From positions 1 through 19,684 of the forward strand of contig JAZRFT010000006.1 of the NCBI GenBank assembly GCA_045643805.1: a stretch of 19,684 bases of DNA, given 5' to 3'. The position numbers and the translations under genes are program-made. The stretch is from Acutalibacteraceae bacterium (GTDB lineage: Bacteria > Bacillota > Clostridia > Oscillospirales > Acutalibacteraceae). A model generated the notes under the pieces. The model was given only the letters and a program-made list of their open reading frames with translations. It had not been told where the DNA came from and made no database searches. Shown piece by piece: positions 7,920 to 19,684 of this stretch (within the stretch, counting starts at the first letter, position 1; every line of letters begins with the position of its first letter).

Positions 7920-8788
7920 ATTGTTTTCTCCTTTATTTCAAACTTCTCAATTATTTCTTCATCAGGGAAATCAAACAGGAACCAACCCTTATTTCCCGCA
8001 AGGTCATAAGCTTTAAAAAGAGTGTTCATTTCCTCTGCCGTTTTAACAAGGCTTTCATTTTTGTATCTGTAAGCGGAGCTTATAAAATGAACGCTGATGT
8101 TATTTTCATCACACTTGCAAGCTTCAAGGAATGGCTTTTCGCATTTGTTCCATTTTCGTGAAGGAGCAAGACCGTATCTGTCCTGAACAACTGCCCTTTG
8201 ATTTTCATTAAGAACAACGGGGTAAATTTTTTCTTTCCTTTTACCGCCCTGGTCCTTCCAACAAGAAAAGTCAAGACCGCAGTCCTTTTCCTTTGCCCAC
8301 CAAGGAAAAACCTTGCACCTACGCATAAGCACCATTTTTCCGCGGCACTCGGAAAGGGTGGGAATTTCATTTTTCAGGTACCACTCATTTTCATTGCCGA
8401 CTATGTACTTTTCATAAAAGGCAGGGAAAAACCATCGGTTCATAATTCCTCTGTCCTGCTTGATGCTCACAATAAGGATTTCGTCAGGATTGGCCTTTAA
8501 AAATTCACGGAAATCGGAAAGCACATCATCAAAGATGAGTTTCTTTTGCTTACCGCTGTCAGTAAAGCAATCGGCAAGGGAGTGGCAAAGGTAAAAATCC
8601 TTACCGCTTTTATAAAGACGTATATCAAAAAGGCGGATACCGAGCTCCAGCTGTTCTTTTACCGTAAGGCTCTGACAACGGCACATATTTTCCATTGTGC
8701 AAAAAGCCGTACAGCTGTCGTGGGTGCCGGGTATATTTACCTCGGAAAGGTAAATTTCATCAGGCAACGCCGAAAAAAATGCCTTCAT
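7916..8788 (-). CDS. PI-PLC X-domain (PLC-like phosphodiesterase) protein, cytoplasmic
   Basis: 290 aa. NIPGTHDS and GIRLFDIRL match the catalytic X-box of bacterial phosphatidylinositol-specific phospholipase C. No signal peptide. ATGA overlap with the GH4 gene. Confidence 0.7.
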   Translation of the reverse strand: MKAFFSALPDEIYLSEVNIPGTHDSCTAFCTMENMCRCQSLTVKEQLELGIRLFDIRLYKSGKDFYLCHSLADCFTDSGKQKKLIFDDVLSDFREFLKANPDEILIVSIKQDRGIMNRWFFPAFYEKYIVGNENEWYLKNEIPTLSECRGKMVLMRRCKVFPWWAKEKDCGLDFSCWKDQGGKRKEKIYPVVLNENQRAVVQDRYGLAPSRKWNKCEKPFLEACKCDENNISVHFISSAYRYKNESLVKTAEEMNTLFKAYDLAGNKGWFLFDFPDEEIIEKFEIKEKTI

Positions 8789-11128: not shown

Positions 11129-11204
11129 GCTGATATAGCTCAGTCGGTAGAGTGCATCCTTGGTAAGGATGAGGTCACCGGTTCAAATCCGGTTATCAGC
11201 TCCA
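11129..11204 (+). tRNA. tRNA-Thr (anticodon GGT)
   Basis: 76-nt cloverleaf. Acceptor GCTGATA/TATCAGC, D arm GCTC-AGTCGGTA-GAGT, anticodon arm CATCC-TTGGTAA-GGATG (anticodon GGT), T arm ACCGG-TTCAAAT-CCGGT, encoded CCA. Confidence 0.9.
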
Positions 11205-11237: not shown

Positions 11238-11288
11238 CTTTTGCTTTTGATATTTTTATCTGACTACATCCTTTTTTACATTTTTTTA

Positions 11289-12242
11289 ATGAAGGGATGC
11301 GGTCATATTATGCGTTCAAAAATTGTATTTCGTGGACAGTCAGAGAAATTATTTTATGAGGTGTTTGAAGACTTCATTATTTCTCAAACTGCAAGGGGTA
11401 TTTCAGATATTACTATCAGAAATTACCGTCAGCATTTACACAGTATATCCAAACATTTGGATATAGAAACACCCTTTGAAGAATTAACCAAAAGACACCT
11501 TGATGAAATGATTTTATCTATGAGGGCAAACGGTCTTGCTCATAACTCAATAGCAACCTATGTTCGGATGCTTCACACCTTCTTTAATTGGTGCAACCGT
11601 GAGGGAATTTCAGACCTCAATATATCAAGTATCAGAGAAAAAGAAACAATCAAAGAAACCTATTCAGACGAAGAACTTGAACGGCTTCTTAAAAGACCGG
11701 GAAAGGAAGCGGAATTCGGTGAGTTCAGGTGTTGGGTTATTGTAAACTTCTTTATGAACTGCGGATGCCGTGCGGCGACTGTCCGCAATATTCAGAACCG
11801 TGATGTTGACCTGAAGGGAAGACAGATAATATTCAGACACAACAAGAACGGCAAAATTCAGGTTGTTCCTCTTTGCAGTAGAATGGTTCTTATTTTAAGT
11901 GATTATATGTCTGTCCGCAAAGGCAAACCTGAAGACTATCTTTTCTGTAATCAATACGGTGAAATGCTGACGGAAAATGCCCTCAGCCTTGCAATTAAAA
12001 GATATAATAAAAAGCGAGGAGTAAAGAAAACAAGTATGCACCTGTTCCGCCACACATTTGCAAGAAAATATTTGGTTGACTGTGGCGGTGATGCCTTTAT
12101 GCTTCAGCGACTTTTGGGGCATAGCACTCTGAATATGACAAAACATTACTGTTCTATTTTTGATGCGGACATTTCAAAGAACTATGACCGTGTTTCACCC
12201 TTGGAACAGTTAACAAAACCAAAAGAGACCATTAAACGCTGA
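11289..12242 (+). CDS. Tyrosine-type site-specific integrase
   Basis: C-terminal catalytic motifs MHLFRHTFARKYL and LLGHSTLNMTKHY (R..HxxR..H..Y), and an N-terminal SAM-like core-binding domain. The ORF is open from 11241. Candidate ATG starts are 11289 and 11310; neither has a strong SD. Confidence 0.85.
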   Translation: MKGCGHIMRSKIVFRGQSEKLFYEVFEDFIISQTARGISDITIRNYRQHLHSISKHLDIETPFEELTKRHLDEMILSMRANGLAHNSIATYVRMLHTFFNWCNREGISDLNISSIREKETIKETYSDEELERLLKRPGKEAEFGEFRCWVIVNFFMNCGCRAATVRNIQNRDVDLKGRQIIFRHNKNGKIQVVPLCSRMVLILSDYMSVRKGKPEDYLFCNQYGEMLTENALSLAIKRYNKKRGVKKTSMHLFRHTFARKYLVDCGGDAFMLQRLLGHSTLNMTKHYCSIFDADISKNYDRVSPLEQLTKPKETIKR

Positions 12243-12281: not shown

Positions 12282-12309
12282 AGGGCGAAGGAATTTTAAC
12301 CTTCGCCCT
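12282..12309. terminator. Bidirectional hairpin between convergent integrase and WYL genes
   Basis: 10-bp stem AGGGCGAAGG (12282-12291) / CCTTCGCCCT (12300-12309). The 3' arm overlaps the end of the WYL ORF. Confidence 0.6.
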
Positions 12310-13318
12310 CATCTTTATACATATCTGAAACTTTTTCAATAAATTTTTTCATTTCCTCAACAACCGGCTGAGGGCTTAATATCTTTGCACCTCTTCCAAA
12401 AGTAGAAATCCACGCATAGAACGGCGGACTTGTTTCAATCAGAGCTGTAAATGTAAAGTGCTTGTCTCCGTCAGGTATCATAATTATATCTTTGCCGAAT
12501 TGGTCTATAACGGCATCCGCAAAACGGTTGATGAAACGCATTTTTACATTATGCTTGTCTCCGTGATACATCTGAAACACCTTTGCTTCTCTGTTAGTCA
12601 GGTGTTCAGCTTTAAATAGTTCCGCACCCTCACGGTCTTCAGGAATTGGACTTGTTATCCGTTCCATGCGGTCAACTCTGAAACTGTGGAAGCCCTCTTT
12701 TTCTGAAAGGTAAGCATAAAGATAATAATTGCCATTATCCCAATGGAACGCAAAGGGGCTGACTATATATAACTCACCCTTCTTTGAATATTGCTTGGGT
12801 TTCTGCTTGTTGGGGGTATAATGAAAATACCTGAACCCTATTTTCATATTCAGAGAAATTGCAAGATGTATCTTGTCAACATCCTTTACAACACTGTCAT
12901 TTTTACTGCGGACACGGTTTGACACATAAGCGGTTCTGTTCAGACTGTCCTTTGTGTAAACATCTGCAAAATCTTTGATTTTTGCCGTAATTGACCGTGC
13001 TTCCTCTTGGGTAATAAACTTTGATGACTGAATACTGTCAACAATCAAACGCAGTTCGTATGGCTCAAATTTGGGCTTTGTTATATAATACCCTCTTTGT
13101 TTTGCACTGTATTCAATCGGTTCGCCGAAGTCAACCTGAAGCCTGAATATATCGTTATATATCGTTTTCGGTGATGCTTCAATTCCTTTTGAAGCTAAAT
13201 ATTCGCAAATCTTATTTGCATTTTTTGCGTGGTCTTTGTTTGTGTTCGCCCTCAAATAGTCTCTGATGTAAAGAAGCTTTACGCCTTGACCTGAAGACCT
13301 ACCTTGACCGACTGCCAT
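12296..13318 (-). CDS. HTH-WYL-WCX transcriptional regulator (BrxR/CapW-like architecture)
   Basis: 340 aa. N-terminal winged HTH (ICEYLASKGIEASPKTIYNDIFRL), central WYL-type SH3 barrel (IGFRYFHY...LYIVSPFAFHWDNGNYYLYAY...FRVDRM), C-terminal extension. GGAAGGTGA lies upstream of the ATG. Confidence 0.8.
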   Translation of the reverse strand: MAVGQGRSSGQGVKLLYIRDYLRANTNKDHAKNANKICEYLASKGIEASPKTIYNDIFRLQVDFGEPIEYSAKQRGYYITKPKFEPYELRLIVDSIQSSKFITQEEARSITAKIKDFADVYTKDSLNRTAYVSNRVRSKNDSVVKDVDKIHLAISLNMKIGFRYFHYTPNKQKPKQYSKKGELYIVSPFAFHWDNGNYYLYAYLSEKEGFHSFRVDRMERITSPIPEDREGAELFKAEHLTNREAKVFQMYHGDKHNVKMRFINRFADAVIDQFGKDIIMIPDGDKHFTFTALIETSPPFYAWISTFGRGAKILSPQPVVEEMKKFIEKVSDMYKDEGEG

Positions 13319-13400
13319 AATATCACCTTCCTGTGTATATTGGAATGATTATAGCATAGAAAAAGTGTTAAAGTAAAGATGCAATAAAATGAACAAAACC

Positions 13401-13433
13401 CAATAAAAAAGAGATATCAGTTATGATACCTCT
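13401..13433 (-). terminator. Rho-independent terminator after the methyltransferase gene
   Basis: On the minus strand, stem AGAGGTATC / GATATCTCT (one mismatch) with the MTase stop codon in the loop, followed by TTTTTTATT. Confidence 0.55.
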
Positions 13434-14155
13434 TTTTCTAATCTTTTTTCAGTTGCTCTCATATAAGTTTCGTCTATCTCGATTCCTATATATTTTCTAT
13501 TGTTTCTTAATGCTGCTATACCTGTGCTGCCTACCCCATTAAAACAATCAAGAACCACATCATTTTCATTGGAAGCAATTTTGATTATTTTTTCAAGTAT
13601 AGACACGGGCTTTTGTGTTGGGTGTAAATTTTTTCCACTTTCATCTTTCACTCGTTCAGAACCCATGCAAATACCTGATTCTATAAAATTGTGCATATCT
13701 TTTTGATTTGTAAAATTCCAAGTGTGTCCTTTATTCCAACAACTAACAATGAGTTCGCAACTATTTAAAAATGATGATTTTCTAAAGTTCGGAACAGGAT
13801 TTGTTTTATGCCATACCATAAATTGAAATGTGTCAAATTCAGGGTCGAACACTTTATGATATTCACCAATAATATTGTAAGAACAAAATATAAATATGTT
13901 TCCGTTTGGTTTTAAAATCCTCTTGAACTCACCTATAAGGTCTTGAGGTTTTAACTCTGTCAAATCCCATTCTGCTAAATCATTATTGATTTCACTTCGC
14001 CAATCAAATTTCATATTGCCTGTGCTATATTGAGCAATATTATATGGGGGGTCAGTCAATATTAAATCTATTGAATTGTCGGGGATATTTTTTAAGGCAG
14101 AAAAACAATCATCGTTAATCAACAAGTATTTTTCTATGCTCTGAATATCTATCAT
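13421..14155 (-). CDS. Type II DNA methyltransferase, beta-class N6-adenine/N4-cytosine (DPPY)
   Basis: 244 aa. Catalytic motif IV LILTDPPYNIAQ near the N-terminus and SAM-binding motif I VLDCFNGVGSTGIAA near the C-terminus (beta permutation). The start overlaps the upstream ORF stop as ATGA. Confidence 0.85.
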   Translation of the reverse strand: MIDIQSIEKYLLINDDCFSALKNIPDNSIDLILTDPPYNIAQYSTGNMKFDWRSEINNDLAEWDLTELKPQDLIGEFKRILKPNGNIFIFCSYNIIGEYHKVFDPEFDTFQFMVWHKTNPVPNFRKSSFLNSCELIVSCWNKGHTWNFTNQKDMHNFIESGICMGSERVKDESGKNLHPTQKPVSILEKIIKIASNENDVVLDCFNGVGSTGIAALRNNRKYIGIEIDETYMRATEKRLEKEVS

Positions 14156-14976
14156 CTAAAATACATTCCTTTTATCTTTGTTAATGCAGTTCTTATTTTG
14201 TCTGCGGATTTTTTATACTGATTGAATACAATTTCAAAACCTTTTTCATCATTACAAACAAAGTTCCAATATTCTTTACCAATCAACAATTCATCTTCTG
14301 CAAAAAATTGTTTTACTCTTTCTTGTTTCCAAGTCTTGCCCTCACCAAACTTGTTATAAGCAGTTCCGAAAAAGATTTTTATTTTTGCAGTCGCATCATC
14401 TTTTAATTGATTTTTTAACAAAAAGTATTCTTCAAGTAATGCTGTTTTTTCCGCACGAGCTTTCTTATTATCTAAATCTCCTGATGCTTTTAACTCAATT
14501 AAATAATGTTCATTCTTCTCTTTGCAGTAAAAATAATTGTCAGTTATATGAGTTCTTTTATAACTTGTTATATCTCTTGGATATATAGATGAGTATGTAG
14601 AATAATGGTTTATATCAGGGGTTGTTATGTGGTCTACATAACTATCTAATATTGATGATATTCTTGAAATTTGGTCAGGCAATATAAATGAATTAATATC
14701 ACCTTTTACTTCATAGGATAATTTTGCGATATTATTACCCATTTTTTCAAGAACATTACCAAAAGAAGAGTCAAAAGAACGGACAAAGGCGGAGTAAAAC
14801 ATAAATTCTTCGCCAAGTTCTGCAATAAAGCAGTTATTCTTTTTCATATTGATAACACCATTAACATCATCAACTTCATCAGAATATCTGCTTATTAAGC
14901 CCTCGGCGAATGCTTCTATTGCGGTATCAACTACTATCTCTATTGCCTTTTGCTTCTGCATATCCATATTCAACAT
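14152..14976 (-). CDS. Putative type II restriction endonuclease partner of the methyltransferase
   Basis: 274-aa ORF translationally coupled (ATGA) to the MTase. It has a possible PD-(D/E)xK-like core (HITDNYF...HYLIELKASGDLD). Family assignment is not secure from sequence alone. Confidence 0.5.
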   Translation of the reverse strand: MLNMDMQKQKAIEIVVDTAIEAFAEGLISRYSDEVDDVNGVINMKKNNCFIAELGEEFMFYSAFVRSFDSSFGNVLEKMGNNIAKLSYEVKGDINSFILPDQISRISSILDSYVDHITTPDINHYSTYSSIYPRDITSYKRTHITDNYFYCKEKNEHYLIELKASGDLDNKKARAEKTALLEEYFLLKNQLKDDATAKIKIFFGTAYNKFGEGKTWKQERVKQFFAEDELLIGKEYWNFVCNDEKGFEIVFNQYKKSADKIRTALTKIKGMYFR

Positions 14977-15104: not shown

Positions 15105-15692
15105 TTATTTTTCCAAAAGCCCCACATATTTATAAATCGTGGTTCTACTCAAACCGCACACCCTTGCAAATTCTGAAATGTTCAGATTGCCTGATTTATA
15201 AGACGGATAATGCCTGTAAAACATCTGCGGAATTTGGTCTGTGGTTGTATGAGGGCGACCTATTTTTACACCCTTGCTTTTGGCATTTGCCATTCCTGAA
15301 CGCACTCTTTCTCTGATAATGCGAAGTTCAAGTTCTGCAAACACACCTGACATCTGAATGAACGCATTTGTCATGGGGTCAATCTGACCGTTTGTGCAGT
15401 CAACCGTAATACTGCCAACAATAACAAGCTTAAGCTTCTTTTCTCTTACGGTTTCAATTATCTCACAAAGTTGTTTTGTGCTTCGTGCAAGTCTTGAAAC
15501 TTCAAGGGTGTATATTGTGTCGCCCTCATGAGCCTGTTCCAAAAGTGAAGAAAGTTCTTGTTTTATGGCACTGTCGCCGTGTTCGTATTCGAGGTATATC
15601 TGTTCTGCACCTGCGGTCTTCAGCTCTCTGACCTGACGGTCAATGTCCTGTTTGCTTTCATTCGTGCTACATCTTGCATATCCGTAATACAT
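15105..15692 (-). CDS. Small serine recombinase (resolvase/invertase family) with C-terminal HTH
   Basis: 195 aa. N-terminal YGYARCSTNESKQDIDRQ (catalytic Ser9), SRLARS, FAELELRIIRERVRSG, and C-terminal HTH ISEFARVCGLSRTTIYKYV. Confidence 0.85.
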   Translation of the reverse strand: MYYGYARCSTNESKQDIDRQVRELKTAGAEQIYLEYEHGDSAIKQELSSLLEQAHEGDTIYTLEVSRLARSTKQLCEIIETVREKKLKLVIVGSITVDCTNGQIDPMTNAFIQMSGVFAELELRIIRERVRSGMANAKSKGVKIGRPHTTTDQIPQMFYRHYPSYKSGNLNISEFARVCGLSRTTIYKYVGLLEK

Positions 15693-15706
15693 AATTTATC
15701 TTCCTT

Positions 15707-15973
15707 TCAATCAATAAAAGTATCATAAGTGAATTTAGCACCGAGCCTGAACCCTGATATAAAACTATCACAAATACTGATGCTTGAAAATTCATTGTAA
15801 GCATCTGTGTATTTGACGAACAATTCTTTTTCGGCTTCAGGAAGCTTTGCAGTCAACTCTTCCTCTTTCTTTACAAGTTCGCCGAGCTTCCTTTTAAGCT
15901 TCGGTGTAATTTTAGTGTTAAGTTCTTGCGGTTCTATATTGCCGTAATAAAAGGCTTCAATAAAATCTGACAT
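15707..15973 (-). CDS. Hypothetical small protein
   Basis: The ORF is open from 15997, but codons 1-8 lie inside an intergenic hairpin. The ATG at 15973 (MSDFIEAFYYGN...) has AAAGGA upstream. It sits in an operon with the recombinase. Confidence 0.55.
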   Translation of the reverse strand: MSDFIEAFYYGNIEPQELNTKITPKLKRKLGELVKKEEELTAKLPEAEKELFVKYTDAYNEFSSISICDSFISGFRLGAKFTYDTFID

Positions 15974-15988
15974 AATTGTATCCTTTCT

Positions 15989-16012
15989 CTGCCCCACTTT
16001 TGCGTGGGGCAG
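15989..16012 (-). other. Intercistronic hairpin
   Basis: 8-bp stem CTGCCCCA / TGGGGCAG with an 8-nt loop. No T-run, so this is more likely an RNA processing/stability element than a full terminator. Confidence 0.4.
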
Positions 16013-16023
16013 TTCCTGTTTTA

Positions 16024-16299
16024 TCAGCAGATTGTGAAACGGCGACTGCTGACCTGTTTTGTAAACTCCTGATACATTTCACCGTGAGACTTTTTAAAAG
16101 CCGTTGTATCAAATCTGTTTGACAGAACTGATGTCCAACGAACTATGTAAGCTCCGGCTTCAAGCTCTTCTGTGTTCTGCTGAAGCATCTCTGCTTTGAT
16201 ACTGTCTCTGAGGGCTTCGGCTTCTGCCTTGGCTTCTTCGATGATTGCTTCCCATTCTGTGAGGGCTTCAATTTTGCTGATGATTTCTTTTGTTGACAT
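16024..16299 (-). CDS. Hypothetical coiled-coil protein
   Basis: 91-aa ORF, first gene of the leftward operon. Helical acidic N-terminus (EAIIEEAKAEAEALRDSIKAEM). No recognisable catalytic motif. Confidence 0.55.
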   Translation of the reverse strand: MSTKEIISKIEALTEWEAIIEEAKAEAEALRDSIKAEMLQQNTEELEAGAYIVRWTSVLSNRFDTTAFKKSHGEMYQEFTKQVSSRRFTIC

Positions 16300-16347
16300 T
16301 GTTTTTACTTCCTTTCGGTTTTGTGTTTTGTTTTATTTGATGTATTC

Positions 16348-16454
16348 ATTATAGCACTAATATTTAGTGTTGTCCATTGACATATTGCACTAACTTTCAG
16401 TGTTATATTTGTGCAAATTTAGCACTTGTTTTTAGTGCATAGTTATGATAGAAT
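16348..16454. promoter_or_regulatory. Divergent promoter region with three 6-3-6 palindromic operators
   Basis: O1 CACTAA-TAT-TTAGTG (16355-16369, perfect), O2 CACTAA-CTT-TCAGTG (16388-16402), O3 GCACTTG-TTT-TTAGTGC (16422-16438). Centres are 33 and 35 bp apart. Leftward promoter TGGACA (16376-16371), 17 nt, TATAAT (16353-16348), with O1 filling the spacer. Rightward promoter TTGTTT (16426-16431), 17 nt, TGaTAGAAT (-10 hexamer at 16449-16454), overlapping O3. Confidence 0.65.
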
Positions 16455-16482
16455 GTTTACAATAGGAAAGGTGGCGAAAAAA

Positions 16483-16707
16483 ATGGCGATACAATACAAG
16501 ATTGATATTATGGCAGAACTGAAAAGCAAAGGTTATTCTTCAACAAAAATCCGTGAAGAAAAACTTATCGGTCAGTCATACCTTCAGCAAATCAGACACG
16601 GCGAATTGGTCTCTTGGAAAACCATTGACACAATCTGCTCTCTCTTGGACTGTCAGGTAGGCGACTTGGTTGAATATGTAAAAGAACCAACTGTTCAAGA
16701 AAGGTAA
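16483..16707 (+). CDS. XRE/Cro-type helix-turn-helix regulator
   Basis: AGGAAAGGTGG precedes the ATG at 16483 (MAIQYKID...), in frame with the 16426 ORF-track start. 74 aa with the C-terminal block TIDTICSLLDCQVGDLVEYV typical of short Cro/CI-like HTH proteins. Confidence 0.7.
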   Translation: MAIQYKIDIMAELKSKGYSSTKIREEKLIGQSYLQQIRHGELVSWKTIDTICSLLDCQVGDLVEYVKEPTVQER

Positions 16708-16749: not shown

Positions 16750-16979
16750 TACACCTCTTTTTTACCCACCTGAAAGTGTCTGCGGAATGTAATGCTTTTG
16801 CGACACCTACCCCGGGGGTGTATTCCGGGAAAGTTCAGGATTGATTGCGGACTTGCGGTTTTGGGTGGCTCACTCTCCGTCTGAATGATGTTTTTAATCT
16901 GAATGACGGTTTTGTTGACCGCAAAGGATACAATGAAAATACTCCGTCAGACGAACCAAAAGGAACATAACGAAAAAAT
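16750..16979. other. Structured non-coding region (candidate ori/oriT or ncRNA)
   Basis: About 230 nt with no credible ORF. Direct repeats CTCCGTC(T/A)GA (16874-16883, 16942-16951) and TCTGAATGA (16879-16887, 16899-16907). Complementary segments CCGTC/GACGG. Hairpins GTGTC...GACAC (16777-16807) and ACACC..GGTGT around the CCCCGGGG palindrome (16803-16821). Confidence 0.4.
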
Positions 16980-17014
16980 ACGGCAGACCGTGAGTTTTTA
17001 TCTTGGTCTGCCGT
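16980..17014 (-). terminator. Rho-independent terminator ending the amber-containing operon
   Basis: 10-bp perfect stem ACGGCAGACC (16980-16989) / GGTCTGCCGT (17005-17014), followed on the minus strand by ATTTTTT. Confidence 0.75.
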
Positions 17015-17019
17015 TTATC

Positions 17020-17154
17020 TTATTTCCAATCTTTGAAGATTTCATCAAGTGCCATATCAAGTGCGGTCTTCATGCTTTTCTGAAGGAATGAAAACAATTC
17101 TGCTTCAATCACACTTTTCTTCTTTTTCTTCTTGTTATCTCTTTGGTTTGCCAT
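17020..17154 (-). CDS. Small basic protein, 44 aa (below the ORF-track cutoff)
   Basis: MANQRDNKKKKKKSVIEAELFSFLQKSMKTALDMALDEIFKDWK. The ATG at 17154 overlaps the upstream stop as TAATG, GGTGA lies upstream, TAA is at 17020-17022 and a terminator follows 6 nt later. Confidence 0.45.
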   Translation of the reverse strand: MANQRDNKKKKKKSVIEAELFSFLQKSMKTALDMALDEIFKDWK

Positions 17155-17354
17155 TAATTTTTCACCTTGCTTTCAAAGGTGAATTTTATCTCCGTGGGGG
17201 TATCATCAAAATACCCTATGCGTTCAAGGAACTTCTATCTCTGCTCCTCAAGGTTCTGTTCCGGGCTTTGTCCGTTTACCTGATACCAATACCAATCAGG
17301 AACCATGCCACGGTTTCTCCAAAACTATAACATTTGCAATTCTTCCTTATTCAT
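17154..17354 (-). CDS. 66-codon ORF containing two in-frame TAG codons (hypothetical; intact only with amber readthrough)
   Basis: MNKEELQML*FWRNRGMVPDWYWYQVNGQSPEQNLEEQR*KFLERIGYFDDTPTEIKFTFESKVKN, with TAG at 17325-17327 and 17235-17237. GAAGGAG lies 7 nt upstream of the ATG at 17354. There is no TAA/TGA until the terminal TAA (17154-17156). Confidence 0.45.
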
Positions 17355-17374
17355 AAAATTTCTCCTTCCATAAT

Positions 17375-17785
17375 CTAATCAAGGGATATATTCAATGCTC
17401 CCTTGTTGTTTGTATTCTTCCGCCAATTTTCCTCTGTCGGTATCTGACAATTCAATGAGGGCATAAACAAGCGGATATAATAACCTTCTCTTTCTCCAAT
17501 TTCTTCCTCAATTTCTTCTTTTGTCTGACTTTTGGCAGAATACAAAACATTGAATTTCACATTATATCTTCTTCTCTTGGCTTCCGCAAGAACCTTGTAT
17601 TTGTTCTCTTTTGGATTTGACATTGAAACCCAATGTTCTGCCATGCGGTAAAGCATATTCGTGCTTTTACCTACATAAACGATTTTGTTGTTTATGCTTA
17701 TTGAGTAAATCCCTGCGGTCAGGAACTTCTGACTCCAACTTTGCTATAAATATTTATTGTAGATGTTATCAACATATCTTCCCAT
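17375..17785 (-). CDS. GIY-YIG nuclease with an in-frame TAG at codon 14 (pseudogene under the standard code)
   Basis: GGAG lies 7 nt upstream of the ATG at 17785. The frame reads MGRYVDNIYNKYL*QSWSQKFLTAGIYSISINNKIVYVGKSTNMLYRMAEHW..., with TAG at 17744-17746. The GIY...YVG...R..H and E...N blocks are present. The ORF-track start at 17656 would delete the GIY motif. The nominal stop is TAG 17375-17377; readthrough adds 7 codons to a TGA at 17351-17353. Confidence 0.6.
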
Positions 17786-17803: not shown

Positions 17804-18358
17804 TTAAAATTTAAAGTTGCCGTTTTCATCCGTGAAATCATCCTTCACTCTTGGATTATTCGACTTTATAGTATTTAGATTTTTATTATTAGAATTTATA
17901 TTATTGCTTATATTATTATGCGTATTATCATTATCCCCTAAAGGGGTATTATCAGAATCTGAAGGGGTATTTTCAATGTCAGATGAAGGGGTATTATCAA
18001 TGTCCGCCGCAGTTTTGTAGATTGCATCATAATCAACAATGATTTCGCCCGTCTGACCGTTTTTGCTTGGCTTATGGATTATCCAACCTTTTTCAACCAA
18101 TGATTTTCTTGCACTCTTATATGTAGTTTCAGACATTCCGCAACGGCTCATAACTGTTGCTTCAGGAACGGCAAAACTACCATTATCAGCATTACCGGTC
18201 AGGAACAATATCAATTTCAACTATGCTCCTTCTTTTCCGGTCAGACCGTTGAAAATTATTGCTTCAAGGTCATTGGTTCTGATTGCCATGCCCCACTTTT
18301 TGTCCCTGTTCTTTTCGCCTTTAGATTTCAGTAAAGGTGCCTGATTGAAATTCCCCAT
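17804..18358 (-). CDS. Winged-helix replication-initiator-like protein (phage O / HTH_36-like N-domain) with an in-frame TAG at codon 46
   Basis: The ATG at 18358 is preceded by GGAGGG. The frame reads MGNFNQAPLLKSKGEKNRDKKWGMAIRTNDLEAIIFNGLTGKEGA*LKLILFLTGNADNGSFAVPEATVMSRCGMSETTYKSARKSLVEKGWII..., with TAG at 18221-18223. The C-terminus is a low-complexity Asn/Asp tail with DNTP repeats. The ORF track begins at the TTG immediately after the TAG. Confidence 0.6.
17940..18004 (-). repeat. Degenerate tandem repeats inside the initiator-like gene (encode (D/E)NTP units)
   Basis: GAAGGGGTATTTTCAATGTC (17961-17980) and GAAGGGGTATTATCAATGTC (17985-18004) match at 19/20 positions. A partial third copy AAGGGGTATTATCA lies at 17941-17954. 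Confidence 0.6.
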
Positions 18359-18383: not shown

Positions 18384-18509
18384 CTATTCACAGGCGAACC
18401 TGATAAACTGACTTGTATTCATATTGAATTTTTTTGCCGTCTCTTGGATTGCTTCTTTTTCACAATCCGTCAGGCGAAGGTCTAATTTTTTATTGCGTTT
18501 TTTATTCAC
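18384..18509 (-). CDS. Ribbon-helix-helix (MobC/CopG-like) protein, 41 aa to a TAG (below the ORF-track cutoff)
   Basis: AAGGAG lies 7 nt upstream of the GTG at 18509. MNKKRNKKLDLRLTDCEKEAIQETAKKFNMNTSQFIRFACE has a beta-strand/helix/helix pattern typical of RHH accessory proteins. It ends at TAG 18384-18386; readthrough would add 20 codons to a TAA at 18321-18323. Confidence 0.5.
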   Translation of the reverse strand: MNKKRNKKLDLRLTDCEKEAIQETAKKFNMNTSQFIRFACE

Positions 18510-18578: not shown

Positions 18579-18607
18579 ATTATAACAAAATTTTTTAATA
18601 AAATCAA
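18579..18607 (-). promoter_or_regulatory. Strong sigma-A type promoter of the RHH/initiator/GIY-YIG operon
   Basis: On the minus strand TTGATT (18607-18602), 17 nt, extended -10 TGTTATAAT (-10 hexamer at 18584-18579). The -35 box overlaps the 16-bp repeat copy B. Confidence 0.6.
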
Positions 18608-18699: not shown

Positions 18700-19176
18700 T
18701 CAGGCAACATCATCAAGCTCGGTGTTTTCTGCTTCCTTATCCGCAAATTCTTTTGCATTCAGCACTTCAGGTTCATTGTGAAAATAAAACAAAGGGTTCT
18801 TTCTGAACTCCGGGAACTGTGCAACAAACCACTTGCGAACAAGAGCATATTTGTTGGTCTGAATTACACCGGCATAGTATTTGAGAAAATTGTATTCTGC
18901 CATATATTCATCAGCACGGGAAAGTGAAGACATGAACTTTTCCATTCTTTCAAACTTCAGATTTTTGAACTGATTGCACTTGAAAGTTTCATTGTTCTGA
19001 TTGGTATATTTTTTCGGTCTCTTGTGCGTTCTTCTCAAAACCACAATACCGGGAACTTCATCAATGACCTTTTTATAAAACTTGTATTCCTCTGAAGAAA
19101 AATCCTGCATCTTATCTTCAAAATCCTTTGTGATTGTAAGTGTCTTCTTGATAAAATCAATCTTAAACTTTTCCAT
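18700..19176 (-). CDS. Hypothetical protein, paralog 2 of a tandem pair
   Basis: The ORF is open from a GTG at 19188, but AAGGTGGA lies 8 nt upstream of the ATG at 19176 (MEKFKIDFIKK...), which matches the N-terminus of the neighbouring paralog. Shares the VRKWF block. Confidence 0.6.
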   Translation of the reverse strand: MEKFKIDFIKKTLTITKDFEDKMQDFSSEEYKFYKKVIDEVPGIVVLRRTHKRPKKYTNQNNETFKCNQFKNLKFERMEKFMSSLSRADEYMAEYNFLKYYAGVIQTNKYALVRKWFVAQFPEFRKNPLFYFHNEPEVLNAKEFADKEAENTELDDVA

Positions 19177-19197
19177 TGTTATATCCACCTTTCTTTA

Positions 19198-19644
19198 TTA
19201 TGCACCCTCTTTTTGTGAAACTGCACTGACTTTTACTTTTACTGATTTTCTTGCTTCAGCAATGTTTCTGATAGTTCTTGACTCTCGGATTATCTTCTTT
19301 TCCTTCTTAACATTAAAGGTTTCACCGTCTACCTTATAAGTATCAAGGAACCACTTTCTGACTGTGGGGAACTTATTGTTCTTGTCGATTGCTTCAAATT
19401 CAGGCATACGGTCAGGATCATTAAGTGTGATATACTCTCTGATGAATGAACGGTTTAAACCTTCATAAGTTGTCTTCTTTTTCTCTGCTTCTGTAATCTT
19501 AAGTTCGAAGCCTGCGTTTTCTGACATGAGGGTTGTTAACTCTGCGAGTTCCTTTTCATAGCCTCTGCCGGCACGGTTGAAGGCTCTTTCTGAACCTCTG
19601 ATTTCCTTGTTGATAAAGTCCACTGTAAAGAATTTTGTTTTCAT
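19198..19644 (-). CDS. Hypothetical protein, paralog 1 of a tandem pair
   Basis: 148-aa ORF (MKTKFFTVDFINK...TVRKWFLDTY...) with AAAGGA upstream. No recognisable domain. Confidence 0.6.
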   Translation of the reverse strand: MKTKFFTVDFINKEIRGSERAFNRAGRGYEKELAELTTLMSENAGFELKITEAEKKKTTYEGLNRSFIREYITLNDPDRMPEFEAIDKNNKFPTVRKWFLDTYKVDGETFNVKKEKKIIRESRTIRNIAEARKSVKVKVSAVSQKEGA

Positions 19645-19684
19645 AGCATTATTTCCTTTCCGTGAGGTTTACTATTTTTTATTT

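Follow-up and report, generated by a model that had tools for sequence, protein, structure and literature searches.

TAG as an apparent sense codon in the early replication operon of a small genomic island from Oscillospirales

Here we describe a short operon in which the amber codon TAG occurs repeatedly in frame, together with the genomic island that carries it. The operon lies on the minus strand of contig JAZRFT010000006.1 from an Acutalibacteraceae bacterium (assembly GCA_045643805.1), which was analysed from position 1 to position 19,684 of the forward strand (19,684 nucleotides (nt); hereafter referred to as the window, in which all coordinates are given unless another locus is named). 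At its core is a gene related to replication initiator genes (17804–18358, minus strand; hereafter referred to as the Rep-like gene), which consists of 184 codons including one in-frame TAG. The gene begins with the ATG at 18358–18356, preceded by a GGAGG sequence 9 nt upstream, and runs through 45 codons (MGNFNQAPLLKSKGEKNRDKKWGMAIRTNDLEAIIFNGLTGKEGA; MGNFNQ...LTGKEGA) to the TAG at 18223–18221, which is codon 46. The following TTG (18220–18218) is the first of another 138 codons, which end at the TAA at 17806–17804. A preliminary description of this stretch had recognized an initiator-like gene split in this manner, and its coordinates are confirmed on the minus strand. It had also pointed to an AGGAG sequence 5 nt upstream of the TTG as a possible signal for a second start; this sequence is present, but is read as part of the coding sequence GAA-GGA-GCA (Glu-Gly-Ala). 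The Rep-like gene is one intact gene; the TAG does not mark the border between two genes, nor is it a nonsense mutation, and the 184-residue product of the gene is, as far as sequence similarity indicates, a winged-helix, initiator-like DNA-binding protein. Standard annotation splits or truncates TAG-bearing genes of this type, and the NCBI annotation presents the Rep-like protein as a 137-residue ‘helix-turn-helix domain-containing protein’.

In the Rep-like protein, a conserved N-terminal region precedes the HTH_36 winged helix, which is followed by an Asn-rich tail that ends in the conserved motif FTDENGNFKF. With the TAG translated as X, the read-through product aligns to the Pfam HTH_36 profile (PF13730, gathering cut-off 25 bits) over residues 45 to 93 (profile positions 6 to 55) with a score of 23.9 bits, slightly under the cut-off, compared with 23.3 bits for the product starting at the TTG (residues 3 to 47, profile positions 10 to 55). 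The homologue P0001, which is 93% identical and has no difference within the first 85 residues apart from Gln in place of X at position 46, aligns over residues 43 to 93 (profile positions 4 to 55) with 26.3 bits. HTH_36 is matched by all 25 of the 25 aligned homologues, in which Gly44-Ala45-Gln46 and Lys48 are invariant, some of the Gln46 residues being artefacts of gene calling. An AlphaFold2 model based on the homologue alignment contains helices at residues 29–38 and 44–55, a strand at 63–65 and helices at 66–73 and 77–90, followed by a two-stranded wing (93–96 and 105–108) and a helix at 110–118, and is thus predicted to adopt a winged helix-turn-helix fold. The helix spanning residues 44 to 55 is the first of the winged helix (residues 44 to 108), against which helix 29–38 packs from the upstream side, so that residue 46 begins the first helix of the domain in the model. 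The overall confidence of the model is medium (mean predicted local distance difference test (pLDDT) score of 60.5), with block means of 80–81 for residues 31–40 and 41–50 and of about 64–87 over residues 31–110, and with values below 50 for residues 121–171, where the Asn-rich tail is left unmodelled. Together, the profile alignment and the predicted fold bear out the earlier proposal that the amber codon lies inside a single domain.

The lambda O-type assignment that accompanied this proposal fared less uniformly. A Foldseek search of the Protein Data Bank (PDB) with the model retrieved generic winged helices only (CodY, MarR, TubR and the N-terminal domain of a plasmid RepA; best E values of ~3e-3 to 4e-2) and the structure therefore cannot confirm an initiator; the family profile had no match among PDB sequences. 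The PHROG profiles ‘replication initiation protein’ (270, E = 9.6e-13), ‘DnaD-like helicase loader’ and ‘replication initiation O-like’ (678, E = 6.6e-9) match residues 41 to 176, covering only the N-terminal halves of profiles of 300 to 455 positions. Thus, the HTH_36 match, the O-like PHROG and the iteron-like repeats described below agree with the assignment, whereas the lack of a match to Pfam Phage_rep_O and the restriction of the PHROG matches to N-terminal halves do not. The PHROG names and the iteron-like repeats suggest an initiator function.

A genome scan identified ten related loci in metagenome-assembled genomes (MAGs) of Oscillospirales from ruminant and other gut samples, belonging to Clostridia bacterium, Acutalibacteraceae, Candidatus Fimenecus and Oscillospiraceae. 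The 45 codons, the TAG and a matching continuation are present in nine of the ten GTDB species genomes, and the remaining one has CAG. When contigs from JGI, ENA and Logan are included, codon 46 is TAG in 17 of 21 loci, CAG in three and CAA in one; an alignment of the homologues, which the preliminary description had suggested as a check, accordingly places Gln opposite the TAG in all four loci without it. A neighbour-joining tree of the 21 loci implies at least three independent switches between TAG and a non-TAG codon at this position, and a genuine CAG or CAA stands there in L016, L018, L025, L029, L033 and L034 (L numbers denote related loci). Every relative without the TAG has Gln in this column. 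Additional TAGs replace Gln102 or Gln103 in L023, L028, L030 and L031, the last of which has a tandem TAG-TAG. Among diverged TAG-bearing loci, in which synonymous differences (pS) reach 0.5–0.7, the 45 upstream codons have a median ratio of nonsynonymous to synonymous changes (dN/dS) of 0.15, and the 70 codons that follow the TAG and encode the winged helix have a median of 0.07. The low dN/dS values upstream and downstream indicate that both sides of the TAG are translated and constrained.

These data bear on two simple alternatives. The first is decay, in which the element would be a defective remnant and its TAGs inactivating nonsense mutations. The conversion of CAG to TAG by a C-to-T change is a common mutation, and the island lacks structural genes; nevertheless, the TAG persists in loci that differ at most synonymous sites, dN/dS is 0.07–0.15 on its two sides, the interrupting codon is always TAG, with no TAA, TGA or frameshift in the operon genes, and the repeats at the attachment (att) sites of the island are intact at two different insertion sites. 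The second is the production of two proteins, a 45-residue peptide and a 138-residue protein initiated at the TTG at 18220 through the AGGAG, as the preliminary description had entertained. Both signals are present in the window, and gene callers using code 11 return truncated proteins of this kind (P0027 to P0033). In the relatives, however, the corresponding codon is CTG, TTA, TTG or CTC and the AGGAG is altered to AGGTG; the restart site is not conserved, because the codon after the TAG may be any leucine codon. The first in-frame ATG, GTG or TTG after the TAG in L008, L009 and L010 is codon 70, inside the domain. Moreover, the truncated product would lack part of the first helix and the helix upstream of it in the predicted model, and purifying selection is strongest on the residues that directly follow the TAG. 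A restart at the TTG and pseudogenization are each effectively excluded by this evidence.

Homologues that begin at the equivalent of 18220 would have spoken for the restart. Database entries of 133 to 137 residues that begin with MKLILF or MLFLTGN do exist, but they are gene-calling artefacts: in the two whose DNA was inspected, P0027 (L001) and P0033 (L002), the 45 codons and the TAG lie directly upstream of the called start. The opposite artefact also occurs. P0001, P0010 and P0020 (L028, L021 and L023) are stored as full-length proteins with Gln46, yet their DNA has TAG at this codon and does not yield the stored protein under translation table 11; the gene caller evidently used code 15 on these contigs. 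Large protein databases thus hold ‘full-length’ versions that were silently translated with code 15, and a homology check that relied on them would wrongly suggest an ordinary Gln codon in the relatives.

The Rep-like gene is part of a five-gene operon, which consists of a NikA-like ribbon-helix-helix gene, the Rep-like gene, a GIY-YIG nuclease gene, a small gene F and a 44-codon open reading frame (ORF), all on the minus strand. A promoter-like site (18579–18607; TTGATT, 17 nt, TG-TATAAT), which is a consensus match only, lies upstream of the NikA-like gene (18384–18509). This first gene ends in TAG (18386–18384) in the window; the corresponding codon is CAG in L009, L021 and L023, in which the NikA-like frame runs on for about 20 codons and overlaps the Rep start. 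Its relatives have in-frame TAGs further upstream, and tandem TAG-TAG is found in those of L011 and L014. The TAG at 18386–18384 may be either a stop or a sense codon. The GIY-YIG gene (17351–17785) extends from the ATG at 17785 to the TGA at 17353–17351 and contains two in-frame TAGs, one at codon 14 (17744–17746) and one near the C terminus (17375–17377; ISLD*IMEGEIL, where the asterisk denotes the TAG), the latter column also being TAG in L021, L023 and the phage L042. There is no other start upstream of the GIY motif, so the gene requires the ATG at 17785 and read-through of the TAG at 17746–17744. Gene F (17154–17354, 66 codons) overlaps the GIY-YIG stop in an ATGA and has in-frame TAGs at 17327–17325 and 17237–17235, which brings the in-frame TAGs of the window to five (one in the Rep-like gene, two in GIY-YIG and two in F). 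The operon probably closes with the 44-codon ORF (MANQRDNKKKKKKSVIEAELFSFLQKSMKTALDMALDEIFKDWK; 17020–17154), the start codon of which overlaps the stop codon of gene F in a TAATG. This ORF matches the C-terminal part of gene ‘F’ of L023, where its counterpart is fused into a longer ORF with a TAG. A terminator-like hairpin follows the operon (16972–17013; GGCAGACC, a 15-nt loop, GGTCTGCC and a T-run), an inverted repeat read from the sequence.

To survey TAG usage across loci, TAG was translated as X; among the operon genes, the survey covered the NikA-like, Rep-like, GIY-YIG and F genes and left out the 44-codon ORF. Only these four genes have in-frame TAGs; every other gene family of the island is free of them. 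Across 11 non-redundant islands, the four together contain 44 TAGs among 4,260 codons, alongside 59 CAA and 52 CAG codons, and all other genes of the same islands contain none among 10,872 codons. A search of about 170 kb of related loci for ORF pairs split by a TAG, with at least 45 codons on each side and no overlap by a longer ORF in another frame, likewise yielded just the Rep-like and GIY-YIG genes. At 21 TAG columns, 74 of the 201 residues in sequences without TAG are Gln, which is the commonest residue at eight of the columns. No shared sequence context was found on the 3′ side of the TAGs; at the 44 sites, the +1 base is T at 17, A at 12, G at 8 and C at 7. These comparisons suggest that, in this island family, the first four genes of the operon repeatedly use TAG to encode an amino acid, most likely glutamine. 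Pyrrolysine decoding was rejected as an explanation, in view of the variable position of the TAG columns, which mostly have Gln, Glu or Lys in the aligned sequences. Context-dependent programmed read-through was likewise rejected, given the absence of a stimulatory context and the presence of tandem TAG-TAG.

Near-cognate read-through of UAG typically inserts Gln, which would suit leakage in a standard-code host, in which a near-cognate tRNA-Gln misreads UAG at a few percent, the TAG acts as an attenuator and the 45-residue peptide is the main product. Purifying selection on the 45 N-terminal codons would likewise be compatible with a function of that peptide. The genes with several TAGs, however, are difficult to express in this way: the GIY-YIG gene of L017 has three, and tandem TAGs interrupt two NikA-like genes (L011 and L014) as well as the Rep-like gene of L031. 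The yields would multiply across the stops, so that such genes are not expressible by leakage. Nor is there a conserved context or structure after the TAGs that would promote it. We consider leaky read-through very improbable.

Three iteron-like direct repeats (TGAWAATACCCCTT) and a degenerate fourth (17922–17999, minus strand), spaced 21–24 nt apart, lie towards the 3′ end of the Rep-like gene, with an AT-rich stretch (17855–17921) after them. Within the gene, the repeats encode a repeated (D/E)NTP(S) motif of the protein, and they are kept in L008, L011 and L017. In the phage L018, the repeats lie in non-coding DNA directly downstream of a shorter rep gene, which indicates that their conservation acts on the DNA. 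The repeats and the AT-rich stretch at this place are, by their sequence features, a likely candidate for the replication origin.

The operon is carried by an integrated island of about 9 kb in the window. One island end is at the integration site in a tRNA-Thr(GGT) gene (11129–11204, plus strand), and the far end lies beyond the window. From this end, the island encodes a tyrosine integrase (11241–12242, plus strand); a cargo segment (12296–14976, minus strand) with a WYL-WCX regulator, an N6/N4 DNA methylase and a TdeIII-type restriction enzyme; a small serine resolvase, a DUF6809 protein, a 91-residue protein and a convergent HTH_26 Cro/CI-type regulator on the plus strand (15105–16707); the TAG-containing operon; and, upstream of the operon, two genes for proteins of 148 and 162 residues (18700–19644, minus strand). 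All of these genes outside the operon are free of TAG, and the integrase has no in-frame TAG in the window or in the nine related loci with a match. The 148- and 162-residue proteins have no assigned function, and searches of Pfam, PHROGs and NCBIfam gave no match for either. Both recur at 23–48% identity in most related islands, always without TAG, and have a short (K/R)KWF patch in common. The two were considered as paralogues, a relationship that was not established, as only an 18-residue patch is shared (E = 0.002). No capsid, tail, terminase or lysis gene was found in the island.

Related islands are located at tRNA-Thr or tRNA-Pro genes in Oscillospirales MAGs, and 46-bp direct repeats of the 3′ half of tRNA-Thr(GGT) or tRNA-Pro(GGG) bound those of L010 (9.1 kb), L013 (8.2 kb) and L002 (12.3 kb). 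The cargo slot between the resolvase and the integrase varies among them; in L002 it holds an Eco57I-type methylase and a 982-residue T5orf172/ResIII protein, and in L021 a leucine-rich repeat (LRR) protein. By analogy, this variable slot resembles the defence hotspots of satellites. ARAGORN detected no tRNA(CUA) in the window or in the 35 element-related loci L001–L035, which include the three att-bounded islands; the tRNAs reported there belong to the host flanks, and an Rfam scan of the island returned the tRNA-Thr only. At 8197–8292 of L010, ARAGORN reported a 96-nt ‘tRNA-Lys’ at the place of the 46-bp att repeat; this call is probably spurious and due to the tRNA-Thr remnant.

The host might itself supply suppression, through a chromosomal amber suppressor tRNA or through weak or absent release factor 1 (RF1), so that TAG would be a rare but ordinary Gln codon. 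In favour of this idea, TAG-bearing islands occur in at least nine GTDB species, the phages L042 and L045 (described below) have early TAGs and no tRNA in their recovered parts, and TAG is rare as a stop codon, terminating 2 of 38 host-flank ORFs of at least 100 residues (window, L002, L008, L010 and L013) and 4 of 135 over all loci, a small sample; such rarity would make a resident suppressor tolerable. On the other hand, the flanking host genes in the ~170 kb of related loci contain no convincing in-frame TAG, and the limitation of split ORF pairs to operon genes gives no indication of TAG being read as an amino acid in the hosts. The RnfB gene of L002 still ends in TAG; a TAA follows one codon later. 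The integrase, resolvase, regulators and cargo are all among the genes without a single TAG, and this strict avoidance of TAG outside the operon is hard to square with a host suppressor. We regard suppression by the host as unlikely, if less so than leakage.

The closest TAG-free homologue of the Rep-like protein (66% identity) is encoded on a siphovirus-like contig of 19,087 bp. Seven of the ten contigs that carry this homologue fall in the 10–20 kb class, and L018, L019 and L020, from three Logan runs, are each 19,087 bp long. The contig has genes for a portal, a terminase, a Mu-F-like protein, tail proteins and an integrase, and a module of NikA-like, 56-residue and Rep proteins. It is probably the complete genome of a small temperate phage that uses the standard code. 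Among the IMG/VR phages to which it is related through the large terminase are L042 and L045, two small siphovirus-like phages whose early module (1317–2535 in L042 and 1312–2533 in L045) includes a 65-residue gene with two TAGs, a Rep-like gene with one and a GIY-YIG gene with four to five. A few other small early genes also bear TAGs, and the late genes (lysin, terminase, portal and capsid) have none. The GIY-YIG protein of these phages is 38% identical to that of the window and has the C-terminal TAG column in common. The Rep-like protein of L042 aligns with the window protein only downstream of the L042 TAG, and homology of that TAG to codon 46 is not claimed. Rfam scans of L018, L042 and L045 returned no tRNA, and no more complete genomes of L042-type phages were found.

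Scans of IMG/VR with the integrase and GIY-YIG proteins yielded no relatives. A scan of IMG/VR with the 3′ half of tRNA-Thr matched 104 stretches, and the loci found in this manner held no relatives of the operon genes; among the viral loci examined during this att-site search for a helper, none had a tRNA(CUA). In the literature, we found no paper on virion-less islands or satellites with a TAG-using block.

Collectively, the data are well explained if the Rep-like gene is intact, TAG is a sense codon in the operon and translation of the operon depends on a suppressor acting in trans, a reading that we consider likely. TAG would be read as Gln by an amber suppressor, presumably a tRNA-Gln(CUA). 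As no suppressor is encoded in cis, a cell with the standard code would stop after 45 codons of Rep and 13 of GIY-YIG. Full-length operon proteins would then be made only when a suppressor is present, and the operon, silent in an ordinary host cell, would act as a translational switch, such that island replication driven by Rep and the iterons starts only when the suppressor is supplied. The supplier may be a TAG-recoding (code 15) phage that infects or is induced in the same cell. We favour such a phage over a host suppressor and over leaky read-through, and taken by itself it is a serious candidate that falls a little short of probable. More tentatively, the genetic code itself may serve as the helper sensor of the island, which would then be a phage satellite or a defence island, switched on when a TAG-recoding phage brings in or induces a suppressor tRNA, and would parasitize or defend against alternatively coded phages.

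Several observations weigh against this explanation. The trans-acting factor on which it turns is hypothetical, and read-through itself is deduced from sequence comparison. No helper phage was identified, and no relatives of the Rep-like protein were found in IMG/VR (searched with a single sequence and with an alignment), GenBank phages or PLSDB plasmids (tblastn). Codon bias and relatedness would by themselves account for the degree to which the TAG is conserved at codon 46: across 12 loci, several of them closely related, 13 of 25 two-fold synonymous sites in invariant columns are as conserved, and for this reason we make no claim of selection on the TAG itself. Finally, the published timing model concerns late structural and lysis genes and does not predict TAGs in genes of early replication, where those of the island lie.

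In gut phages, stop-codon recoding is at present interpreted as a way of timing the expression of late structural and lysis genes. The same device appears here in a virion-less island that has defence cargo and no suppressor of its own, as well as in the early genes of related small phages; the distribution of TAGs in L042 and L045 is opposite to the late-gene pattern that has been published. Were the suppressor to come from a recoded phage that infects the cell, the island would sense that phage through a change in the code rather than through a protein signal, which would be a new form of phage sensing and a simple system of one operon and one tRNA.

Among known systems, the TAG-recoded Topaz prophages invite the closest comparison. 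These prophages (~22–24 kb) reside at tRNA-Thr genes in standard-code Oscillospiraceae and have TAG-free integrases; their recoding has been proposed to be a lysogeny switch and has been mentioned as something that could allow a phage to sense co-infecting phages through suppressor tRNAs, which were detected in only about 40% of TAG-recoded phages (Borges et al., 10.1101/2021.08.26.457843). Like the Topaz prophages, the island has TAGs at Gln positions, a standard-code Oscillospirales host, a tRNA-Thr site and a TAG-free integrase, and its genome is divided into a standard-code part and a TAG-using part. Unlike them, it spans only 8–12 kb (as judged from three two-ended relatives), has no virion or lysis genes, was not found in IMG/VR and carries restriction-modification and other cargo. 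In the island, recoding affects a 1.35-kb early replication operon rather than late genes, and none of the complete copies of the island contains a suppressor tRNA. Of the features of phages that use code 15, the island has the Gln-aligned TAGs and the TAG-free integrase and lacks its own suppressor tRNA(CUA) and late-gene recoding.

In gene content, the island resembles phage-inducible chromosomal islands (PICIs), P4-like elements and minimalist satellites: it is a small integrated element without structural genes that has a tRNA-site integrase, a putative initiator and candidate origin of its own, a Cro/CI-type regulator and defence cargo that varies, and its activation would be expected to depend on another phage. 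In contrast to known satellites, it has no packaging-redirection genes that we could find. Known satellites sense their helpers by protein antirepressors, and to our knowledge no satellite has been reported to be gated by the genetic code.

The Rep-like protein itself shares an N-terminal winged helix with lambda O and DnaD-like initiators (PHROGs 270, 428, 678 and 186; HTH_36), and, much as the lambda origin lies within gene O, iteron-like repeats and an AT-rich stretch, as inferred from sequence, lie in or next to its own gene. Unlike lambda O-type proteins, it has only 184 residues and no recognisable domain that recruits a helicase loader. Programmed read-through, as in the A1 protein of phage Q-beta and gag-pol of murine leukaemia virus (MuLV), offers a further parallel, in that an in-frame stop codon lies within a functional coding sequence, and in MuLV the UAG is read as Gln. 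Those systems, however, have a single leaky stop in a defined context or with a downstream structure, and both products are functional, whereas the operon has many TAGs at varying positions, some of them in tandem, with no common context.

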